Source: Marivita sp.
GTDB taxonomy: Bacteria; Pseudomonadota; Alphaproteobacteria; Rhodobacterales; Rhodobacteraceae
Length of the DNA: 64,000 nt
Assembly: GCF_965216415.1 (NCBI RefSeq)
Contig: NZ_CBDCFU010000001.1
Reading direction: 5' to 3' (one strand)
Positions 2,148 to 48,193 of the stretch are shown piece by piece. Positions within the stretch are counted from its first letter, which is position 1. Each line of letters opens with the position of its first letter. The translations under genes were made by a program, and so were the position numbers. The notes under the pieces are model-generated. The model saw only the letters and a list, made by a program, of their open reading frames with translations, was not told where the DNA came from and did no database searches.

Positions 2148-3653
2148 GTGTCGAAAAGTTCAACGAAAGTGGAAATGCGCGGTCTGAGAAAGGCGTATCC
2201 AGGCGTACTCGCCCTGGATAATGTCGATCTTGATCTCTTCGAAGGCGAGGTGCATGCGCTTCTGGGTGAAAACGGTGCGGGAAAATCCACGCTGATCAAA
2301 GTGCTGACAGGGGCGCTGGAACGTGATGCTGGCGATATCAGGATTGACGGCAAAAGCGTTTCTTTCGCCACCACGGGCGATGCTCAGGACGCTGGCATCT
2401 CGACTGTTTATCAGGAGGTGAACTTGATTCCGGCGATGTCGGTCATGCAGAATCTAACGCTTGAAAAGACCTACGGTCGTTTCGGTATCATCAACTGGCG
2501 CAAGGCTCGCCAGGACGCAAAACACAAGCTTGATCGACTCAATCTTGACCTCGATCTGGAGCGCGCGGTCTCAAGCTATTCGGTTGCCATTCAGCAAATG
2601 GTAGCCATCGCCCGTGCTCTTGATGACGACACGAGTGTACTCGTACTGGATGAACCGACGGCGTCGCTCGATTCAGACGAAACCGCGGCGCTTTTCAACG
2701 TGATCAGAAATCTGAAGGCAAATGGCATTGCCGTCGTCTTCATCACCCACTTCCTTGATCAGGTCTACGAGATTTCCGATCGCATCACGGTGCTGCGGAA
2801 TGGATGCAAAGTCGGAACCGGTCTCGCCGCAGATATTGATCGGAAGGAACTGATCGCAATGATGATCGGCCGAGAGTTGAGCGAGGTCGAAGACTCGTTC
2901 CGCAGGCGTCCACCGCAGAACTCCGGCGACATTGTGCTTGAAGCCAAGGGTGTCGGACGCAAACGAGTGCTCGCGCCATTCGACCTCTCCTTGCGAACGG
3001 GTGAAGTCGTGGGGCTTTCCGGTCTTCTCGGTTCCGGCAGGACGGAGCTTCTCAAGCTCATCTTCGGGGCCATATCTCCGGATAGCGGCCACGTTGAACT
3101 GAGACGTGGCAGCGCGGGCATCTCGCCCAAGCATTCGCTGCATGCTGGTATCGCCCTCTGCCCCGAAGACCGGAAGTCCGAGGGCTTGGTCGGTGAATTG
3201 TCGATCCGAGAAAACATTATTCTGTCGATGCAATCCAAACGCGGCTGGCTGCGCCAGATAAGCCGGGCCGAACAGGGGCGGATCGCCAATGAGATGATCA
3301 AGGCAATGTCGATCGCGACACCGGACGCGGAAAAACCGGTGAGACAGCTGTCCGGCGGGAACCAACAGAAAGTCGTGCTGGCTCGCGCTTTGGCTTCGAC
3401 CCCACGTATCATGCTGCTTGACGAACCGACGCGCGGCATAGACGTGGGCGCGCATGCTGAAATCCTGACCCTGATCCGCCAGCTTTGCGAGGATGGTCTT
3501 GCTCTTTTGGTCGCGTCATCCGAGATTGACGAAGTCGTCTCTTCTTCCGACAGGGTCGCCGTGATGCGCGATCGTCAAAAGCTAGGTGAACTAGCAGGCG
3601 ACGATATCACCCGTGACAAAATCGTAGGCATGATCGTAGGTGACCATGGCTGA
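2148..3653 (+). CDS. ytfR: Sugar ABC transporter ATP-binding protein (two ABC domains)
   Basis: GENGAGKST Walker A, LVLDEPT and MLLDEPTRG Walker B, LSGGNQQK signature. Confidence 0.92.
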   Translation: MSKSSTKVEMRGLRKAYPGVLALDNVDLDLFEGEVHALLGENGAGKSTLIKVLTGALERDAGDIRIDGKSVSFATTGDAQDAGISTVYQEVNLIPAMSVMQNLTLEKTYGRFGIINWRKARQDAKHKLDRLNLDLDLERAVSSYSVAIQQMVAIARALDDDTSVLVLDEPTASLDSDETAALFNVIRNLKANGIAVVFITHFLDQVYEISDRITVLRNGCKVGTGLAADIDRKELIAMMIGRELSEVEDSFRRRPPQNSGDIVLEAKGVGRKRVLAPFDLSLRTGEVVGLSGLLGSGRTELLKLIFGAISPDSGHVELRRGSAGISPKHSLHAGIALCPEDRKSEGLVGELSIRENIILSMQSKRGWLRQISRAEQGRIANEMIKAMSIATPDAEKPVRQLSGGNQQKVVLARALASTPRIMLLDEPTRGIDVGAHAEILTLIRQLCEDGLALLVASSEIDEVVSSSDRVAVMRDRQKLGELAGDDITRDKIVGMIVGDHG

Positions 3654-4668
3654 GACAGCGAAAGAAACAATCCCCCAAAGGATCTTCAGTAGTCGTGCGA
3701 TCTGGCCCTTGCTGGCATTGGCCGTGATCCTCATCGCTGACGGATTCATCTCTCCCGGCTTCTACGACATCCGCATTGTCGAAGGGCGTCTGTTCGGCAA
3801 CCTGATCGACATCGTTTATCGTGCGGTGCCAACAGCCCTCGTGGCGCTTGGTATGGCACTGGTGATCGGAACAAAAGGGATCGATCTGTCGGTCGGCGCC
3901 ATTGCGGCTATCGTCGGCGCTGTGATCGCCTGGCGCATCCAGGCCGGTGACCCGCATGTGTTGGTGCTGTTTTATGCCTTGGGTGCTGGCATCCTCTGCG
4001 GCATCTGGAACGGTACGCTTGTCGCGATGCTGGGCATCCAACCCATCATCGCCACGCTGATCCTGATGGTATCAGGTCGCGGGATCGGGATGCTGATCAA
4101 TGGCATTTACGGTGGCACCGACCCGAGCTTCCAAAGCGCGTTCCTTCAGGGCATGTCGACGGGATCGATCTTCTATATCCCGACACGACTCTATGTCTTT
4201 GCGATGCTGTTCCTTCTCCTGTGGTTTCTGGTGCGGCGCACAGCCTTGGGTCTTTTCATCGAGGCGACCGGCGGGAATGCGTCCGCCTCCAACCTCGCCG
4301 GGGTGAATGCGAGGCTCATCACTTTCACCGTGTATGTGATCAGTGGGTTGATGGCGGCTTGGGCCGGCGTGATCCTGACGGCCGACACTCACACCTCTGA
4401 CCCCGTGTCTGTCGCTCTATATATCGAACTGGATGCTATCCTTGCGGTCGTCATCGGCGGCGGATCACTCGCGGGAGGCCGCATTTATCTAGGCATGACA
4501 GTCATCGGGGCGCTGGTGATACAAGCGCTGACGACGTCAATCCTGATTTCCGGCCTACCACCCGAATACAACTTGATCATCAAGGCGATGGTCGTGCTTT
4601 TCGTGCTTGTCCTGCAGTCCGAAAACGCACGTCGCGGCGTGATGGCAAGACTGAAGCGAGGCGTATAA
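3646..4668 (+). CDS. ytfT: Sugar ABC transporter permease
   Basis: 'GIDLSVGA' and 'ELDAILAVVIGG' motifs; hydrophobic; overlaps neighbours. Confidence 0.88.
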   Translation: MAETAKETIPQRIFSSRAIWPLLALAVILIADGFISPGFYDIRIVEGRLFGNLIDIVYRAVPTALVALGMALVIGTKGIDLSVGAIAAIVGAVIAWRIQAGDPHVLVLFYALGAGILCGIWNGTLVAMLGIQPIIATLILMVSGRGIGMLINGIYGGTDPSFQSAFLQGMSTGSIFYIPTRLYVFAMLFLLLWFLVRRTALGLFIEATGGNASASNLAGVNARLITFTVYVISGLMAAWAGVILTADTHTSDPVSVALYIELDAILAVVIGGGSLAGGRIYLGMTVIGALVIQALTTSILISGLPPEYNLIIKAMVVLFVLVLQSENARRGVMARLKRGV

Positions 4669-8507: not shown

Positions 8508-8533
8508 GGAACCTTCCAAGGAAGCATTCCGTT
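8508..8533 (+). promoter_or_regulatory. Sigma-EcfG-type promoter of DUF2892 gene
   Basis: GGAAC-N17-CGTT, 36 nt before ATG. Confidence 0.7.
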
Positions 8534-14236: not shown

Positions 14237-14440
14237 TCATTCATCGAGAAGGAAAGTTACTTCCATATTGACCCGGTAGCCTTTGATCGAGCCATCTTGG
14301 ACTTGGACGTTCATGTCCTTTACCCAGCAACCCTCGACGTTTCTCAAGGTTTGGTTTGCACGTTCAATCCCTTGACGAACAGCGTCATCAAAGCTCTGCG
14401 GTGAAGTTGCGGAAATTTCGGTTACGCGTGCAATAGACAT
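14237..14440 (-). CDS. Dodecin-family flavin-binding protein
   Basis: 'MSIARVTEISATSPQSFDDAVRQG...YRVNMEVTF'; GAGGAG RBS. Confidence 0.9.
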   Translation of the reverse strand: MSIARVTEISATSPQSFDDAVRQGIERANQTLRNVEGCWVKDMNVQVQDGSIKGYRVNMEVTFLLDE

Positions 14441-14468: not shown

Positions 14469-14493
14469 AACGAAAGCAAAGATGGACAGTTCC
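14469..14493 (-). promoter_or_regulatory. Sigma-EcfG-type promoter of dodecin
   Basis: GGAAC-N16-CGTT on minus strand. Confidence 0.7.
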
Positions 14494-23441: not shown

Positions 23442-23466
23442 AACGCGCCCACGCCGGAACCGTTCC
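23442..23466 (-). promoter_or_regulatory. Sigma-EcfG-type promoter of FNT gene
   Basis: GGAAC-N16-CGTT, 8 nt before ATG. Confidence 0.7.
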
Positions 23467-25884: not shown

Positions 25885-27935
25885 CCCTTATCCGGTTTAA
25901 ACCGCGGACCGTGCTTTTCTTCGAACTTCTCGAGCTGCCGAACGATATCTTCGACGCCGCGCGCTCGAGCATAGTGCAAGGGTCCGCCTCGAAACGGCGC
26001 GAAGCCTGTGGCAAAGGTCATTGTGCCGTCAACTTCGTCTTCCTCGGCAACCACGCCAAGCCGCAGGCATTCCACGCAGGCATCAAGCATGGGCAGGATC
26101 ATTCGATCCGCAAGCGCGTCATCGCGCTTCTGCTCTGGGTCCGGCTCGCCGTCGGACCAATTCCACAAGCCTTTGCCAGATTTCTTTCCGGTTTCACCCG
26201 CCTCGACCTTGTCGCGCAGCAATCTTGGCGTGTCGGCCATCGGCTTGTCGAGATCGTCGCGCATGCTTTCGGCCACGTCGACGCAGATATCGAGCCCCAC
26301 GTGGTCTGCCAAGGTGATCGGTCCCATCGGCATCCCGAAGGCCAGCGCGGCACCGTCGATCCGCTCCTTGTCGACGCCCTCCTCCATCAGCAGGAGCGCC
26401 TCCATCAGGTAGGGCATCAACGCGCGGTTCACGAGAAATCCGGGGTGATCCGTCACGACTACCGGCAACCTGTCGATATCGCCACAAAACGCGGTAAGCC
26501 GGTCAAGCGTCTCTTCCGATGTGACGTCTTGTCTCACCACTTCCACCAACTGCATTTTCGGTACCGGGTTGAAAAAGTGAAGACCCGCAAAGCGCTCCGG
26601 ATCCGGCGCCGCCAGCGCAAGACGGCTAAGCCGCAAACTGGACGTATTGCTCACAAGGATCGCTGTATCCTTCAATCCGGAAAGACTTTCATACACATCA
26701 GTCTTGAGCTCGAGCTTTTCGGGCACCGCCTCGATGACCAGATCCGCCTGCCGCACGCCGACACCCTTGGGGTCGGGCATCAAACGATCCATCGCGTCAC
26801 GCGTTTCAAGTGACGACAGATGCGCGCCCGCGCATGTCTTGCGCGCATCACCGATGGCCTGGCCGATTTGGGCGTTTTCTACATCGAAGAGTGTCACCTG
26901 CGCTCCCTGGATCGCCGCCCAAGCGGCAATGTCAGCACCCATGGCACCGGCACCGATGACATGGACATGATGGATTTCACTGTCGCCGCGTGCCGCCGTC
27001 TTGAGTCTCTGCCGAAGGAAAAACACGCGCGCGAGATTGCGGCAGGCGTCGGTCTCCAAGAGCCGCGCGAATGACGCTATCTCGGCCGTCTGCATGGCTT
27101 CGCGGTTTCCACCATGCTCTTCCCACAGATCGATAAGGCCATGCGGCGCGGGGAAATGCTCTTTTGGCGCTTTTTCTTCGGTCTGCTTGCGCATCTGGCG
27201 CGCCGCGAGGCTGCGGCCCGGCTTAGTCTGCACCGCGCGTGACTTGAGCCCTGCAGGGGATTTCTCGAAGCGCTTCGCGGCGATGTCGCGAAGAGCATTG
27301 CCAAGATGGCGTTCCTCAATCACTGCATCGGCGATGCCGAGCTTCTCGGCCTTCATCGTATGTGCCGATTTGCCGGTCAGCATCAGAGTCATCGCTTCAG
27401 TCGGCTCTATCAATTCTGTAAGGCGAAATGTTCCACCGAGCCCGGGATGAAGGCCCAGCCGTACTTCGGGAAATCCGAAAGACGCGCCTTTGATGGCAAT
27501 CCTATGATCGCAAGCCAGCGCAATCTCAAAGCCCGCGCCGAGTGCCGCGCCATGTACGACGGCCACGGTTGGGAAGGGCAACGCTTCAAGCCGGTCGAGC
27601 ACCGCATGGCCTCTGCGTAGCATGTCGGCGGCGCTTTCCTCGTTCAGGTCGGAAAACCGTTTGATATCCGCGCCGGTAGCAAACCCGCTTTGCTTGGCCG
27701 AGCGGATAACCAGTGCAGTGGGCTCTTCTTGCTCCAAAAGTTCAATATGGGCGTCGAGTTCGCTTATCACCGCTTCGGAAATGGTGTTGGTCCCGCTGTC
27801 CGGGCAGTCCAATACCAGCCAGACGATCCCTTGTTCGTCGGTACCAACGCGCCATTTGTCGTCCGCTTCTGCTTTTTGAACCGGCCCGAGGGCCTGACGC
27901 GTCTCGCCTATATAGCTCAGAACTGGACCAACCAT
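25869..27935 (-). CDS. fadJ: Fatty-acid oxidation complex alpha subunit (enoyl-CoA hydratase/3-hydroxyacyl-CoA dehydrogenase)
   Basis: 'GAGFEIALAC', 'FPEVRLG', 'GAGAMG', 'GLHFFNPV', 'PGFLVNR'; TGATG overlap with thiolase. Confidence 0.88.
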   Translation of the reverse strand: MVGPVLSYIGETRQALGPVQKAEADDKWRVGTDEQGIVWLVLDCPDSGTNTISEAVISELDAHIELLEQEEPTALVIRSAKQSGFATGADIKRFSDLNEESAADMLRRGHAVLDRLEALPFPTVAVVHGAALGAGFEIALACDHRIAIKGASFGFPEVRLGLHPGLGGTFRLTELIEPTEAMTLMLTGKSAHTMKAEKLGIADAVIEERHLGNALRDIAAKRFEKSPAGLKSRAVQTKPGRSLAARQMRKQTEEKAPKEHFPAPHGLIDLWEEHGGNREAMQTAEIASFARLLETDACRNLARVFFLRQRLKTAARGDSEIHHVHVIGAGAMGADIAAWAAIQGAQVTLFDVENAQIGQAIGDARKTCAGAHLSSLETRDAMDRLMPDPKGVGVRQADLVIEAVPEKLELKTDVYESLSGLKDTAILVSNTSSLRLSRLALAAPDPERFAGLHFFNPVPKMQLVEVVRQDVTSEETLDRLTAFCGDIDRLPVVVTDHPGFLVNRALMPYLMEALLLMEEGVDKERIDGAALAFGMPMGPITLADHVGLDICVDVAESMRDDLDKPMADTPRLLRDKVEAGETGKKSGKGLWNWSDGEPDPEQKRDDALADRMILPMLDACVECLRLGVVAEEDEVDGTMTFATGFAPFRGGPLHYARARGVEDIVRQLEKFEEKHGPRFKPDKGWDRF

Positions 27936-31487: not shown

Positions 31488-31513
31488 AACGTCATCGCTG
31501 CGACATCGGTTCC
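31488..31513 (-). promoter_or_regulatory. Sigma-EcfG-type promoter of fadE operon
   Basis: GGAAC-N17-CGTT, 20 nt before ATG with GGAGG RBS. Confidence 0.72.
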
Positions 31514-33650: not shown

Positions 33651-33676
33651 GGAACCAACGAACAGTAGCCCACGTT
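33651..33676 (+). promoter_or_regulatory. Sigma-EcfG-type promoter with no adjacent ORF
   Basis: GGAAC-N17-CGTT about 360 nt upstream of the SLC13 start. Confidence 0.55.
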
Positions 33677-36439: not shown

Positions 36440-36670
36440 TCAACCGGCGCCAACGGGTGACGCCGCCCAGGGCCAAGCAATGGCCAGCAAGCCAAGCCAG
36501 AAGAAGAAAAGAAGCAATACGGCGAGCCCGGCTGCCGTGGCGCTGGTCGCGTAGCGATAGCCGCCGCCGTAGCGGTAAGGCCAGCGCTCGTAGGTGTAGG
36601 GCCAAGTTGGCCAAGCAAAAACCGTCACTAGCAGGAGTAACATGAAAAACCAGAAGAAGAAGTCAGCCAT
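36440..36670 (-). CDS. Small aromatic-rich two-TM membrane protein
   Basis: Strong AAGGAGG RBS; two hydrophobic helices flanking WPTWPYTYERWPYRYGGGYRY. Confidence 0.7.
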   Translation of the reverse strand: MADFFFWFFMLLLLVTVFAWPTWPYTYERWPYRYGGGYRYATSATAAGLAVLLLFFFWLGLLAIAWPWAASPVGAG

Positions 36671-36723
36671 TTTTTGTATCCTCCTTGTATTCAGTAATCT
36701 TCGCGGCGTGAACGGATCATCAG

Positions 36724-37263
36724 TCAGGACCCACCCGTCTCTTTCACGTCGCCGAACGCTTTCTCAAGTTCAGCCATATCGCTGTAGCGGCGATCTGGAA
36801 GGCAGGAGATGAGATCCATTTCATGATCGTTGGCCTCGCCACGCGCGTGGGCTGTCAACTCCTCGACGGAGGCCGGAAATTCGATGCCGGAAAAGAGGCT
36901 CGCGAAGCGCGCCGCCGAAAGTGACTTGGAGTGCATGGCAGCATTGCCACCACGGATGCTGGGTTTGTCAGTCGGTTTGTCTTCGCGGGCGCGCAGACCC
37001 CCAAAGGCCCGCGCAACGTCAGCGGCATCCCGATATTCACGGTCAGGTAATGCTTCCAATATATCGGCGATCTCGTCCGCACCGTTGTCTCGCGCATGCT
37101 CAACCAGCGCATCCCGAGTCGCTGGATAAGCTATTCCAGACAAGGACCCTTCGAGATCGGCCGCCGAGGGCGCACGCTCTGGATGTGACGTCTGCATGTG
37201 ACGGCGATATTCCGAGAGCGTGCCAAATTCGGCGCCGCAGATATCACAACGGTGCTGGGCCAT
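36724..37263 (-). CDS. C2H2 zinc finger fused to two DUF2795 domains
   Basis: C-x2-C-x3-F-x5-Y-x2-H-x4-H at N-terminus; two 'YPA/FPA...L...A...LPDR.Y' repeats. Confidence 0.8.
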   Translation of the reverse strand: MAQHRCDICGAEFGTLSEYRRHMQTSHPERAPSAADLEGSLSGIAYPATRDALVEHARDNGADEIADILEALPDREYRDAADVARAFGGLRAREDKPTDKPSIRGGNAAMHSKSLSAARFASLFSGIEFPASVEELTAHARGEANDHEMDLISCLPDRRYSDMAELEKAFGDVKETGGS

Positions 37264-38258
37264 CAGCGCACCTCTCCGACAGCTTTGGTCACATCGGCCA
37301 TCGTTTCGAACTGGCGGTCCGGCATGGTCTTGATCAGGTCAACAACCTCTTCTGGAGCGTCATTATCGCGCGCCTGCCGAGCAAGCGTGGCACGGTCGGA
37401 TGGAAACGATACTCCCTTGAGCGCGGAAGTCACTCCAGCTGCAGAGTCGGTTTTTGCTGCAGCTGGTCCGCCGAGCCGACCACCTTTGCTGCGGTCGCCC
37501 TCGGATTCCACCGGCTCGGCCTCGCCGGTCGCCGAGGCGAAGTTGCCATTTTCCAACGGATCGTCGGGCCAGTTATCCCGATCCAGTCCGAAAGTCTCGA
37601 ATGGGTCGACCTTGCCGTTGGACCCTATTTCGATGGGGTCGGTCTCCGGCTCGGCACCAATCAAGACCAGCTGTGCATTCTCGTAGTCCAGAAGGCGCGA
37701 GTCCGATATGTTGATCCACCGCTCATCCGCAAATTTCTCGAACAGTTCTTTGGGATAATCCGGCTCTGCGTCTGGGAATCCCGGCACATTGATCGAAGGA
37801 TTTCTCACCGAAATGACATAGCGTGCTTCATTCTGAATATTCAGAGCCTTTTGCGCCGCACCAATGTTTTTTGGAGCGTTTAGTCGATAGGCGAGTTGTG
37901 TGGAGCTGTCGCGCGAAGCGATCACGTAACGACCAAAAGCAACGGGGATAGCCTGCGGCGTCTGACGCTCGCCGCGCGTCTTGGTTTCATACTCAACTGG
38001 GTGCAGCGCTTTGCCAAGCTCTGTCGGCGTGCCAACCTCGGACAGTAGAAGCCAATGCCGCTCTGACGGGTCCGATTCTCCTGGTATGATTTCCGGCATT
38101 AGCTTGCGGCCCACAATGAACAGCCGAGCCTTTTTCCGTTCGTCAGGAACCAGCGCTAGATACATCCTTTGCAGATCGTCCACTTCCGAAGGCGTATCAA
38201 TGTCGATCTTTGCCCTATAGAAAAAGTGAATTTCGCCAGTTTCGATAATCTTAGTCAT
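37263..38258 (-). CDS. Conserved hypothetical protein with C-terminal DUF2795 domain
   Basis: N-term 'ETGEIHFFYRAK...LQRMY'; C-term 'LKGVSFPSDRATL...MPDRQFETMADV'; GGAGG RBS; TGATG overlap. Confidence 0.75.
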   Translation of the reverse strand: MTKIIETGEIHFFYRAKIDIDTPSEVDDLQRMYLALVPDERKKARLFIVGRKLMPEIIPGESDPSERHWLLLSEVGTPTELGKALHPVEYETKTRGERQTPQAIPVAFGRYVIASRDSSTQLAYRLNAPKNIGAAQKALNIQNEARYVISVRNPSINVPGFPDAEPDYPKELFEKFADERWINISDSRLLDYENAQLVLIGAEPETDPIEIGSNGKVDPFETFGLDRDNWPDDPLENGNFASATGEAEPVESEGDRSKGGRLGGPAAAKTDSAAGVTSALKGVSFPSDRATLARQARDNDAPEEVVDLIKTMPDRQFETMADVTKAVGEVR

Positions 38259-38446
38259 TTTGGCCTCCATTAAGGCGAAGAGCGCCGACACTCACGTTGT
38301 GGGCCGTATTGATCAAACGGACGTCGTGCACTGGACCAATTCGACATTTCTATTCACCAGGTTTTGTTCGCCTTCGTCGTGCGGGAACACGATCTTTCAA
38401 TATTGGCTAGCAGAATATCTCGCTTATTCGCCTTCCTTTGGTGAAA

Positions 38447-38472
38447 AACATCGCGGTTCGCATTAAGGTTCC
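38447..38472 (-). promoter_or_regulatory. Sigma-EcfG-like promoter of DUF2795 operon
   Basis: GGAAC-N17-TGTT, about 190 nt upstream of start. Confidence 0.45.
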
Positions 38473-38590: not shown

Positions 38591-38616
38591 GGAACCATAC
38601 CGAATAGTAGCACGTT
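38591..38616 (+). promoter_or_regulatory. Sigma-EcfG-type promoter of PRC-barrel gene
   Basis: GGAAC-N17-CGTT. Confidence 0.72.
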
Positions 38617-38649: not shown

Positions 38650-39393
38650 ATGAGACCGTTCAACATCGCCAAGACCGCAACTAGCGCATTCGCACTCGTT
38701 CTGGCAGTTCCAGCCGCAGCGCAGGACAATGAAGAAGTCGAGGTACTAGCTAACTGGAGTTACACTTCGCTCTATTCAGACGGTTGGAGCGTCGAAAACG
38801 TGTTTGCCATGACCGAAGCCGTTGGTGCGAATGGAAACGAAATTGGCGACGTCGAGAATGTCATCTTTTCCAATGATGGCCAGGTGCTCGGTATCATCGC
38901 CGAGGTCGGTGGCTTTTGGGACATACTGGACACGCATGTGTTTGTTCCTTGGGACGAGGTTACTCGCGAAAGAGGAATTGAGCAGATGCGAATTCCGGTG
39001 ACAGAAGAGACAGTCGATGACTACGACGTATTCGGCGGTTACTCACTTGACGAGCAGACCATCAACAGTGCCGATACCAATTCCACGCAGCAGGTCGATG
39101 ACGATCTGGCCGCTGGATCAAACATCTTCAAGGCGACTGATTTGATTGGGGACTACGCTTATCTCTCTGACGGTGCGCGGTATGGCTACATTGCCGACTT
39201 GATCGTCCAAGACGGGGAAATCTCTTCGATTGTGACCGACGCTGCCGCCTACGGTCGCAGCGGCTACTATGCTTATCCTTATGCCTACCGTGGCGATATG
39301 AACAACGGCTACAGACTTCCCTACGATCCAGTGGAAATCGATACGCTTGAGACCTTTGATTACGAACGGCTTCAGTCTCGCGGCAATCCTTGA
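38650..39393 (+). CDS. Secreted protein with two PRC-barrel domains
   Basis: Signal peptide; 'GNEIGDVENVIF...VGGFW...VPW' and 'GYIADLIV'; AAGGAG RBS. Confidence 0.78.
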   Translation: MRPFNIAKTATSAFALVLAVPAAAQDNEEVEVLANWSYTSLYSDGWSVENVFAMTEAVGANGNEIGDVENVIFSNDGQVLGIIAEVGGFWDILDTHVFVPWDEVTRERGIEQMRIPVTEETVDDYDVFGGYSLDEQTINSADTNSTQQVDDDLAAGSNIFKATDLIGDYAYLSDGARYGYIADLIVQDGEISSIVTDAAAYGRSGYYAYPYAYRGDMNNGYRLPYDPVEIDTLETFDYERLQSRGNP

Positions 39394-41151: not shown

Positions 41152-41176
41152 AACGTAAAGGTTGCAGTTTCGTTCC
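41152..41176 (-). promoter_or_regulatory. Sigma-EcfG-type promoter of TrkA-C membrane gene
   Basis: GGAAC-N16-CGTT, 8 nt before ATG. Confidence 0.72.
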
Positions 41177-46861: not shown

Positions 46862-48049
46862 TTATTCAGCGGCGAACCGCTCTTCCGTGGTCTCTTTGAG
46901 ATGCTCCATCGCAGCCTGCGCTCCTCCCGATTGGTGCGGAATACCGGCCTTTGTCAGTCCCATTTCGACGCCAGACAGCGTCGCCATCAGCATCAGGTCG
47001 TTGAAATCACCCAAGTGGCCGATGCGGAACACCTTATCGGCCACCTTTGACAGGCCATTGCCGAGCGAGATGTCATAGTACTTAAGCGTGGTGGCACGGA
47101 ACGCGTCGGCGGAATGACCATCCGGCACCAGGACCGCCGTCAGTACGCCCGATTCCTGTCCTTGTCGTGCGCACAGTACTTCTAGTCCCCAGGCGCGCAC
47201 CGCCGCCCGCGTCGCCGCGCCATGCCGTGCATGGCGGGCGAATACGTTGTCCAGCCCTTCTTCATGCAGCATGGCGATGGCTTCGTTCAGACCGTAGAGC
47301 AAGTTGGTCGCCGGTGTGTACGGAAAGTAGCCAATGGCGTTAGGACCGACCATGTCGTGCCAGTCCCAGTAGCTGCGCGGCATCGTGGCGGATTTCGCGT
47401 GTTCCAGAGCTTTTTCGCTAACGGCATTGAAGCTCAGCCCTGGAGGCAGCATCAAGCCCTTTTGCGAGCCGGAAACGCAGACATCGACGCCCCATTCGTC
47501 AAACCGAAAGTCGATCGACGCGAGGCCGGAGATCGAATCTACCATCAGAAGCGCCGGATGCCCCGCCGCGTCGATAGCCTTGCGCACCTCGGCAATAGGC
47601 GACACCGACCCTGTCGAGGTCTCGTTATGCACTACGCAAACTGCCTTGATCTCGTGTGCCGTGTCTTCACGCAGACGCGTCTCGATCCGATCCGGCTCGG
47701 CCCCGCCGCGCCAGTCGCCTTCCAGGAACTCGGGCACCAGCCCGATCTTGCGCGCCATTTTGCTCCACAACGTTGCGAAATGCCCGGTCTCAAACATCAG
47801 CACCTTGTCGCCGGGCGACATCGTGTTGACCAGCGCCGCTTCCCAAGCGCCCGTGCCAGACGAGGGATAGATGACGACATGCTGCTTGGTCTTGAAGATG
47901 GTCTTCATGCCTTCCAGCGCGGTCTTGCCCACATCGGCGAAATCAGGGCCGCGATGGTCGATGGTCTGCTGCCCAATAGCCTTCAGAATACGGTCCGGCA
48001 CGGCGCTTGGGCCAGGGATTTGCAGGAAATGTCTGCCAGCTTGGCGCAT
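46862..48049 (-). CDS. Class V PLP aminotransferase (serine/aspartate-glyoxylate aminotransferase-like)
   Basis: 'FLQIPGP', 'VHNETSTG', 'VDSISG', 'SGSQKGLMLPPG'. Confidence 0.88.
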   Translation of the reverse strand: MRQAGRHFLQIPGPSAVPDRILKAIGQQTIDHRGPDFADVGKTALEGMKTIFKTKQHVVIYPSSGTGAWEAALVNTMSPGDKVLMFETGHFATLWSKMARKIGLVPEFLEGDWRGGAEPDRIETRLREDTAHEIKAVCVVHNETSTGSVSPIAEVRKAIDAAGHPALLMVDSISGLASIDFRFDEWGVDVCVSGSQKGLMLPPGLSFNAVSEKALEHAKSATMPRSYWDWHDMVGPNAIGYFPYTPATNLLYGLNEAIAMLHEEGLDNVFARHARHGAATRAAVRAWGLEVLCARQGQESGVLTAVLVPDGHSADAFRATTLKYYDISLGNGLSKVADKVFRIGHLGDFNDLMLMATLSGVEMGLTKAGIPHQSGGAQAAMEHLKETTEERFAAE

Positions 48050-48116
48050 AGAATCAAATTTCTCCCTTTGGCGCCGTGAGTCGGGGGGCGGCGCGATTGC
48101 TTGTTGTCAAACGGTA

Positions 48117-48132
48117 ATTATGAATTCATAAT
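48117..48132. promoter_or_regulatory. Perfect 16-bp palindrome, likely GntR operator in divergent promoter
   Basis: ATTATGAATTCATAAT flanked by ttgttgtc / gtcaacaa. Confidence 0.6.
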
Positions 48133-48193
48133 GCAGTCAACAAAAAACTTGGTGCCGCAGCATCGGCACGACTAGGGGGAGATTCTTCGACTG

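Follow-up and report, generated by a model that had tools for sequence, protein, structure and literature searches.

DUF2795 as a candidate docking module between an undescribed domain and a classical C2H2 zinc finger in a Marivita sp. locus

DUF2795 is a widespread domain for which a literature search returned passing mentions in two papers only and no described function. Three copies of it are carried by two overlapping genes at the locus examined here. The locus lies within a 64,000-nucleotide stretch of DNA from Marivita sp. (hereafter the window) and comprises, as the first-pass annotation had noted, three co-oriented, tightly linked genes, which lie on the minus strand. The first, g1 (37263..38258, 331 aa), encodes an N-terminal domain (N-dom) followed by a linker and one DUF2795; the second, g2 (36724..37263, 179 aa), encodes a C2H2 finger and two DUF2795 copies; the third, g3 (36440..36670, 76 aa), encodes an aromatic-rich, two-helix membrane peptide. 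The conserved core consists of g1 and g2 only, a two-gene module that is undescribed, and its sequence features support a role for DUF2795 as a docking module between the two proteins. The locus thus offers a concrete candidate role for the domain, that of a link by which a zinc-finger subunit docks onto another protein.

Homologues of g1, which vary little from 331 aa in length, occur in Rhodobacteraceae, Halomonadaceae and other lineages, and g2 homologues were found on the same contigs. Scanning species-representative genomes yielded 78 loci, which were annotated, together with other fetched loci, using hidden Markov models built from our own alignments. N-dom carried a DUF2795 tail in 53 loci, and in 45 of these a gene combining the zinc finger with DUF2795 was adjacent, usually with the same 1-nt overlap as in the window; the adjacent pairs come from Rhodobacteraceae, Halomonadaceae, Alteromonadales, Thiotrichales, Bdellovibrionota and Thaumarchaeota. 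At the 28 loci where N-dom lacks the tail (Nitrososphaeraceae, Actinobacteria, Planctomycetota, Spirochaetota, Pseudidiomarina and others), such a gene was adjacent in none. One additional locus encodes everything in a single fused gene, to which adjacency does not apply.

Gene fusions tell the same story. Proteins of ~510 aa with the order N-dom, DUF2795, finger, DUF2795, DUF2795 occur in five distinct clusters (P0107, P0085, P0219, P0265 and P0289), and a shorter version (N-dom, finger, DUF2795) forms one cluster (P0208). Among 20 long N-dom homologues, none had an extra domain other than DUF2795 or the finger. The neighbourhood check thus bears out the linkage of g1 and g2 in both bacteria and archaea, and the earlier proposal that DUF2795 is a shared assembly module gains support from the fusions and from the co-variation of the tail with the finger gene. 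No other neighbour is conserved across taxa.

The arrangement of the two genes points in the same direction. The stop codon of g1 (TGA, 37263..37265) donates its final A as the first base of the g2 ATG (TGATG), and this one-base overlap implies translational coupling of g1 and g2. Together with the tail co-variation and the fusions, it forms the strongest evidence that DUF2795 links the two proteins. The start of g1 had been placed by the open reading frame (ORF) finder at a GTG (38291), which is wrong: the true start is the ATG at 38258, since the homologues all begin at the equivalent methionine and a Shine-Dalgarno sequence (GGAGG, 38264..38268) stands 5 nt upstream. None of the three genes matched NCBIfam or the PADLOC anti-phage defence models.

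In two Nitrososphaeraceae loci (L063, 1041-2145; L066, 1344-2343), N-dom and a single DUF2795 are encoded by two genes lying side by side, with no finger, an intermediate architecture. A fragmented copy in Halomonas sulfidaeris ATCC BAA-803 (L065, AP019514, 4001-5504) has the module broken up into many short ORFs: N-dom is divided into three, and the DUF2795 piece and a finger fragment are separate; this is either a decayed copy or the product of frameshift errors in the assembly.

All three DUF2795 copies score above the curated PF11387 cut-off of 25 bits, and a search of the genome confirmed that three copies are present at the locus. Copy 1 (g1 residues 271-331, 37266..37448) is a single match of 60.6 bits (E = 1.3e-16), while g2 scores 89.9 bits (E = 9e-26) over two stretches, copy 2 (residues 31-92, 36988..37173) and copy 3 (residues 114-175, 36739..36924). 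The SAA motif precedes each copy, as reported, is conserved in homologues and, in the AlphaFold2 (AF2) model, corresponds to the first DUF2795 helix; the boundaries given for copy 1 include this leading helix. Copy 1 is helical in the g1 model, and the g2 model, with a predicted local distance difference test (pLDDT) score of 80.5 overall and ~90 over copy 2, contains two four-helix DUF2795 units that had no match in the PDB.

Two of the three copies are preceded by predicted disordered segments with conserved (K/R)GG motifs. The g1 linker (residues 246-270, 37449..37523) has the motif DRSKGGxxGG, with pLDDT below 50 at residues 255-264 and at least 90% conservation of D255, G259, G260, G263 and G264. 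The g2 linker (residues 93-113, 36925..36987) has PSxRGG, with pLDDT below 50 at residues 96-112 and nearly invariant P101, G105, G106 and A109. The glycine-rich linkers seen at first inspection are therefore real and nearly invariant across homologues.

The finger of g2 (residues 4-27, 37183..37254) is a single one of the classical type, with the pattern C6-x2-C9-x3-F13-x5-Y19-x2-H22-x4-H27 that had been read from the window and that is conserved in homologues. C6, C9, F13, H22 and H27 are conserved, and the zinc ligands are invariant or nearly so in 28 homologues. The window protein g2 falls just short of the zf-C2H2 (PF00096) gathering cut-off (23.7 against 25.2 bits); the fused homologue P0265 passes it (27.2 bits) and several homologues have precomputed PF00096 matches. 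The AF2 model predicts a beta-beta-alpha fold that superposes on a finger of ZNF524 (7ysf) with a deviation of 0.6 Å over 29 residues (probability 0.97). In the finger helix, Ser17 (position +2) and Arg21 (position +6) hardly vary among homologues, a sequence pattern compatible with nucleic-acid recognition.

The finger had also been described as eukaryote-style and distinct from those of Ros/MucR, and this description held: the spacing is the classical 12 residues, and the best 60 PDB profile matches listed were all eukaryotic C2H2 fingers, with no Ros chain among them. In Ros, the Cys-His spacing is shorter and lies inside a larger, differently folded globular domain of ~58 aa. Classical C2H2 fingers have been described as almost exclusively eukaryotic (PMC3541406), and g2 provides a conserved example in bacteria, where they are thought to be rare.

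N-dom occupies g1 residues 1-245 (37524..38258) and is beta-rich, judging from its AF2 model. The fusion of one DUF2795 to an unfamiliar domain had been recognised correctly, although that domain measures ~245-250 aa and not the ~270 aa first given. The g1 model has a pLDDT of 86.7, with most of N-dom above 90, and shows long antiparallel strands. Four signature motifs characterise the domain: LExG(D/E)IxFFYR, YETKTRGER, GxGRY and SVRNP. A profile search of 1.84 billion cluster representatives recovered 2,323 family members, 595 of them below 1e-30, and distant N-dom-only members from archaea and bacteria share ~35-40% identity. E6, Y14, R15, R31, R45, K52, R67, W69, Y111, Y124 and N153 are invariant or nearly so in bacteria and archaea, a residue pattern that suggests a specific binding or catalytic site.

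The family reaches into eukaryotes, with relatives in Rhizophlyctis, Geosiphon, Capsaspora, Chara and Balamuthia, each on a large scaffold. These homologues keep the signature motifs, and their N-dom follows long, disordered, highly charged N-terminal tails of low complexity, some of them strongly basic. The proteins concerned (P0223, P0263, P0290, P0347 and P0266) come from chytrid and glomeromycete fungi, Capsaspora, Chara and Balamuthia; one is annotated as a "BTB domain transcription factor", with no BTB match in our domain scan. Searches with 34 diverse members found no Pfam family for N-dom, sequence-profile searches of the PDB gave no match, and Foldseek returned nothing at E ≤ 0.001 in the PDB or BFVD. 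Weak DUF3105 matches span the N-terminal hairpin only and were judged uninformative. N-dom is thus a large unannotated domain family common to bacteria, archaea and eukaryotes, and the module joins it to a eukaryote-style finger in organisms ranging from marine bacteria to soil archaea.

An indication of when the module may act comes from upstream of g1. The EcfG-like promoter noted at ~190 nt is present, GGAACcttaatgcgaaccgcgaTGTT (GGAAC-N17-TGTT; 38447..38472, minus strand), at -214..-189 relative to the ATG. It is one base off GGAAC-N16/17-CGTT and fits the Sphingomonas melonis EcfG motif GGAAC-N17-20-GTT (PMC6599016); a validated target in that species likewise has a TGTT -10 element (PMC6599016). 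Within 600 nt upstream of g1, an exact GGAAC-N15-18-CGTT occurs in four of eight other alphaproteobacterial loci (P ~ 5e-5, from a local background of 0.03 per 600 nt), and NepR is encoded in the genome. The divergent neighbour of g1, a PRC-barrel gene (38650..39393, plus strand), is preceded at 33 nt by a perfect motif (GGAAC-N17-CGTT; 38591..38616, plus strand); the EcfG targets of S. melonis include a PRC-barrel gene (PMC6599016), and the neighbour recurs at L011, L012 and L013, all close relatives.

Judged by these motifs, the module is probably under EcfG general stress control in Alphaproteobacteria; in Gammaproteobacteria and archaea, it must use other regulators. In the searches that we ran, the literature on the EcfG regulon turned up neither DUF2795 nor the operon, and the single DUF entry in one regulon study is unrelated (PMC6599016). 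No conserved 5' leader or RNA element was found upstream.

Taken together, the gene linkage, fusions, tail-partner co-variation, promoter motifs and predicted finger fold lead us to a tentative reading, which we hold at a little short of even confidence: g1 and g2 would form a DUF2795-docked complex whose finger subunit targets N-dom to nucleic acid or another partner. Interaction, zinc binding, target and N-dom activity are what we infer here. The two proteins would be co-translated from a transcript made under the general-stress sigma factor EcfG, and their DUF2795 domains would dock g1 to g2. The finger subunit would then act as an adaptor and deliver N-dom to its target, most plausibly nucleic acid and less plausibly another protein, during osmotic, desiccation or stationary-phase stress; N-dom itself, in which Arg, Lys, Tyr and Glu are prominent among the conserved residues, would probably bind a ligand or act as a catalyst. 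The peptide g3 would be a co-regulated, DUF3309-like addition acquired in one Rhodobacteraceae subclade.

A fuller version of this reading is possible though doubtful. It holds that N-dom is the catalytic or ligand-binding core of an unrecognised family of bacteria, archaea and eukaryotes, that in prokaryotes it recruits the C2H2 finger through DUF2795 docking, and that under stress it acts either on nucleic acid or on a ligand rich in phosphate. Were it true, DUF2795 would receive its first function, as a heterodimerisation module, and a new stress-response activity would be defined.

Several observations weigh against a finger-targeted complex acting on nucleic acid under stress. Six genomes with a tailed g1 and no adjacent g2 have no g2 elsewhere either, so some lineages can do without g2. 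Among the neighbouring genes, none for DNA repair or RNA metabolism recurs. A single C2H2 finger is seldom enough for specific DNA binding and may instead dock a protein. The promoter in the window has TGTT and not CGTT, and stands 189 nt from the start codon. Finally, the window proteins are acidic (pI 4.8 for g1 and 5.0 for g2) and net charge is not conserved, with pI values of 4.5-9.8 among g1 orthologues and 4.8-10.6 among g2 orthologues; general electrostatic nucleic-acid binding is therefore not a property of the family. When L064, L048, L050 and L052 were compared with the window, g2 had a pI of 10.6 in a thaumarchaeon versus 5.0 in the window, and the acidic forms belonged to halophilic or marine lineages.

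The acidic pI also fits the best-surviving alternative, namely that g1 and g2 are abundant, acidic and hydrophilic protectants of the hydrophilin or late embryogenesis abundant type, KGG/GsiB-like in spirit, which would keep macromolecules stable in a non-specific way, with the finger as a structural knuckle and DUF2795 serving self-association. The conserved glycine-rich (K/R)GG linkers and the stress promoter would suit such proteins, and DUF2795 proteins can be very abundant, as in Nitrosospira multiformis at 0.37% of the proteome (PMC5960693). We nevertheless consider this explanation unlikely. N-dom has a compact fold predicted with high confidence, and its invariant polar residues, shared by bacteria and archaea in a domain still recognisable in eukaryotes, are of the kind usual in specific binding or catalytic sites; conservation also extends to the recognition-helix positions in the finger. 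The Pfam KGG repeat (PF10685), moreover, had no match at E ≤ 0.1 in g1 or g2, the SKGG and RGG motifs of the linkers notwithstanding.

The model originally offered for the locus made all three proteins one dormancy or desiccation complex, in which g3 anchors the DUF2795 proteins to the membrane. The peptide is 29% aromatic with two hydrophobic segments in its hydropathy profile, begins 53 nt after g2 behind its own Shine-Dalgarno sequence (AGGAGG, 36680-36685), and no terminator-like site was found between the three genes on the coding strand. Its homologues keep to the vicinity of g1-g2 in four loci of closely related Rhodobacteraceae (L011, L012, L013 and L015), even though they lie downstream of, upstream of or divergent from the pair. 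At L013, a second g3-like copy stands upstream of g1 and the downstream copy is truncated or frameshifted (1485-1724 and 3524-3694); at L015, the g3-like copy is divergent from g1 (3440-3676).

Outside these four loci, g3 is absent from ~40 other pair-bearing loci, including a same-genus relative (L054/G023). It has no DUF2795, and no fusion with either g1 or g2 is seen. Small membrane proteins of the DUF3309 type are its relatives: the window copy has no match to PF11752 (cut-off 22.3 bits), but two homologues that are 61-64% identical to it pass (P0367, 29.8 bits; P0368, 29.1 bits). Since g3 is confined to the closest relatives, the claim that it is a core anchor finds no support. By its sequence relationships, g3 is best classed as a DUF3309-like accessory of one subclade and not as a subunit of the conserved module, and a three-protein complex is quite improbable.

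A different possibility concerns the chemistry of N-dom, which might be a very divergent triphosphate tunnel metalloenzyme (TTM) with a CYTH/TTM-like barrel. Its substrate would be triphosphate, polyphosphate or nucleotides, and the finger subunit would regulate or target it. The only fold matches of non-trivial probability, in two independent libraries, were to TTM proteins: 1yem, 2dc4 and 7nsd in the PDB (probability 0.66-0.80) and a phage CYTH protein in BFVD (0.54). At near-noise probabilities, the BFVD matches further include a VTC-like polyphosphatase (0.12) and an mRNA 5'-phosphatase (0.08), and the long antiparallel strands of N-dom bear numerous conserved Arg, Lys and Glu residues. 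The matches themselves, however, all have E above 0.1, a target-normalised TM-score of at most 0.39 and a root-mean-square deviation above 6 Å. Strand 1 lacks the ExExK motif and reads LExG(D/E)IxFFYR, and a profile-profile comparison (hhalign) of N-dom with 31 CYTH domains gave a probability of 0.1%. We did not file N-dom as a TTM because of the low TM-scores and this negative result, and membership of CYTH/TTM (PF01928) was rejected, there being no profile similarity, no ExExK and no Pfam match. What remains is a low-odds fold analogy suggested by the predicted model, and we regard a TTM activity as very unlikely.

Least probable of all is that g2 is a zinc-finger transcription factor with g1 as its ligand-sensing partner, jointly regulating local genes: the predicted classical C2H2 fold, the conserved +6 Arg and the DNA binding of a single-C2H2 protein from an archaeal virus (AFV1p06, PMC3541406) would fit, but neither the neighbours nor the upstream sequence show conservation between taxa, there is one finger only, the partner is missing in some genomes, and eukaryotic and many prokaryotic N-dom proteins work without a finger.

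The setting of the locus bears on its stress control. The window contains eight exact EcfG-type motifs where 2.4 are expected, most of them well placed before genes, with motifs at 8508-8533(+), 14469-14493(-), 23442-23466(-), 31488-31513(-), 33651-33676(+), 38591-38616(+) and 41152-41176(-). The genes behind them encode a YgaP-like transmembrane protein, dodecin, a formate/nitrite-type (FNT) transporter, an acyl-CoA dehydrogenase, a CitMHS/TrkA-C transporter, the PRC-barrel protein and a TrkA-C membrane protein, so that the window looks like a general-stress gene island. In Mycoavidus (L091, 5851-6054), a dodecin gene directly follows a stand-alone N-dom gene; this adjacency, set beside the EcfG-preceded dodecin gene of the window (14237-14440), may be a coincidence.

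The window covers positions 126079-190078 of contig C1 (389,286 bp), which encodes RepC (27238-27642) and a weak DnaA-domain match (35 bits, 47858-48160); a dnaA with a full score is carried by contig C2 (4.09 Mb). The window therefore lies on a secondary replicon of 389 kb, on which EcfG motifs have a density of 4.6 per 100 kb versus 1.8 on C2. This location fits the patchy distribution of the module, which is present in one of 24 same-genus genomes; it was not found in the plasmid database. Among the lineages that our searches returned, the module appears frequent in halophilic and soil ones. This apparent frequency and the probable EcfG regulon membership put the module forward as a new candidate for a part in the tolerance of osmotic stress or desiccation.

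Compared with known systems, the module combines familiar parts in an unfamiliar way. With other DUF2795 (PF11387) proteins, it shares the small helical unit that passes the family cut-off; most of those are single-domain proteins, whereas here DUF2795 is joined to N-dom or a C2H2 finger, and its presence goes together with that of a partner gene. The finger resembles classical TFIIIA/Zif268-type C2H2 fingers (PF00096; ZNF524, AFV1p06) in its C-x2-C-x12-H-x4-H spacing, conserved Phe and aromatic residue, but unlike them it is a single bacterial finger joined to DUF2795 within five residues. With Ros/MucR, it has in common a Cys2His2 zinc-finger motif in an alphaproteobacterium, and differs in its classical 12-residue spacing. 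N-dom recalls the CYTH/TTM family in its long antiparallel strands with conserved charged residues, that family being its best though weak fold match, and departs from it in profile, ExExK motif and a TM-score below 0.4. The g3 family shares the two-helix layout and WPY-rich loop of DUF3309; its branch is longer (76 aa) and unusually aromatic, and the window copy is without a score. Finally, the locus resembles members of the PhyR-NepR-EcfG regulon in the GGAAC...GTT motif before g1 and its orthologues, and its PRC-barrel neighbour is of a known target type (PMC6599016).

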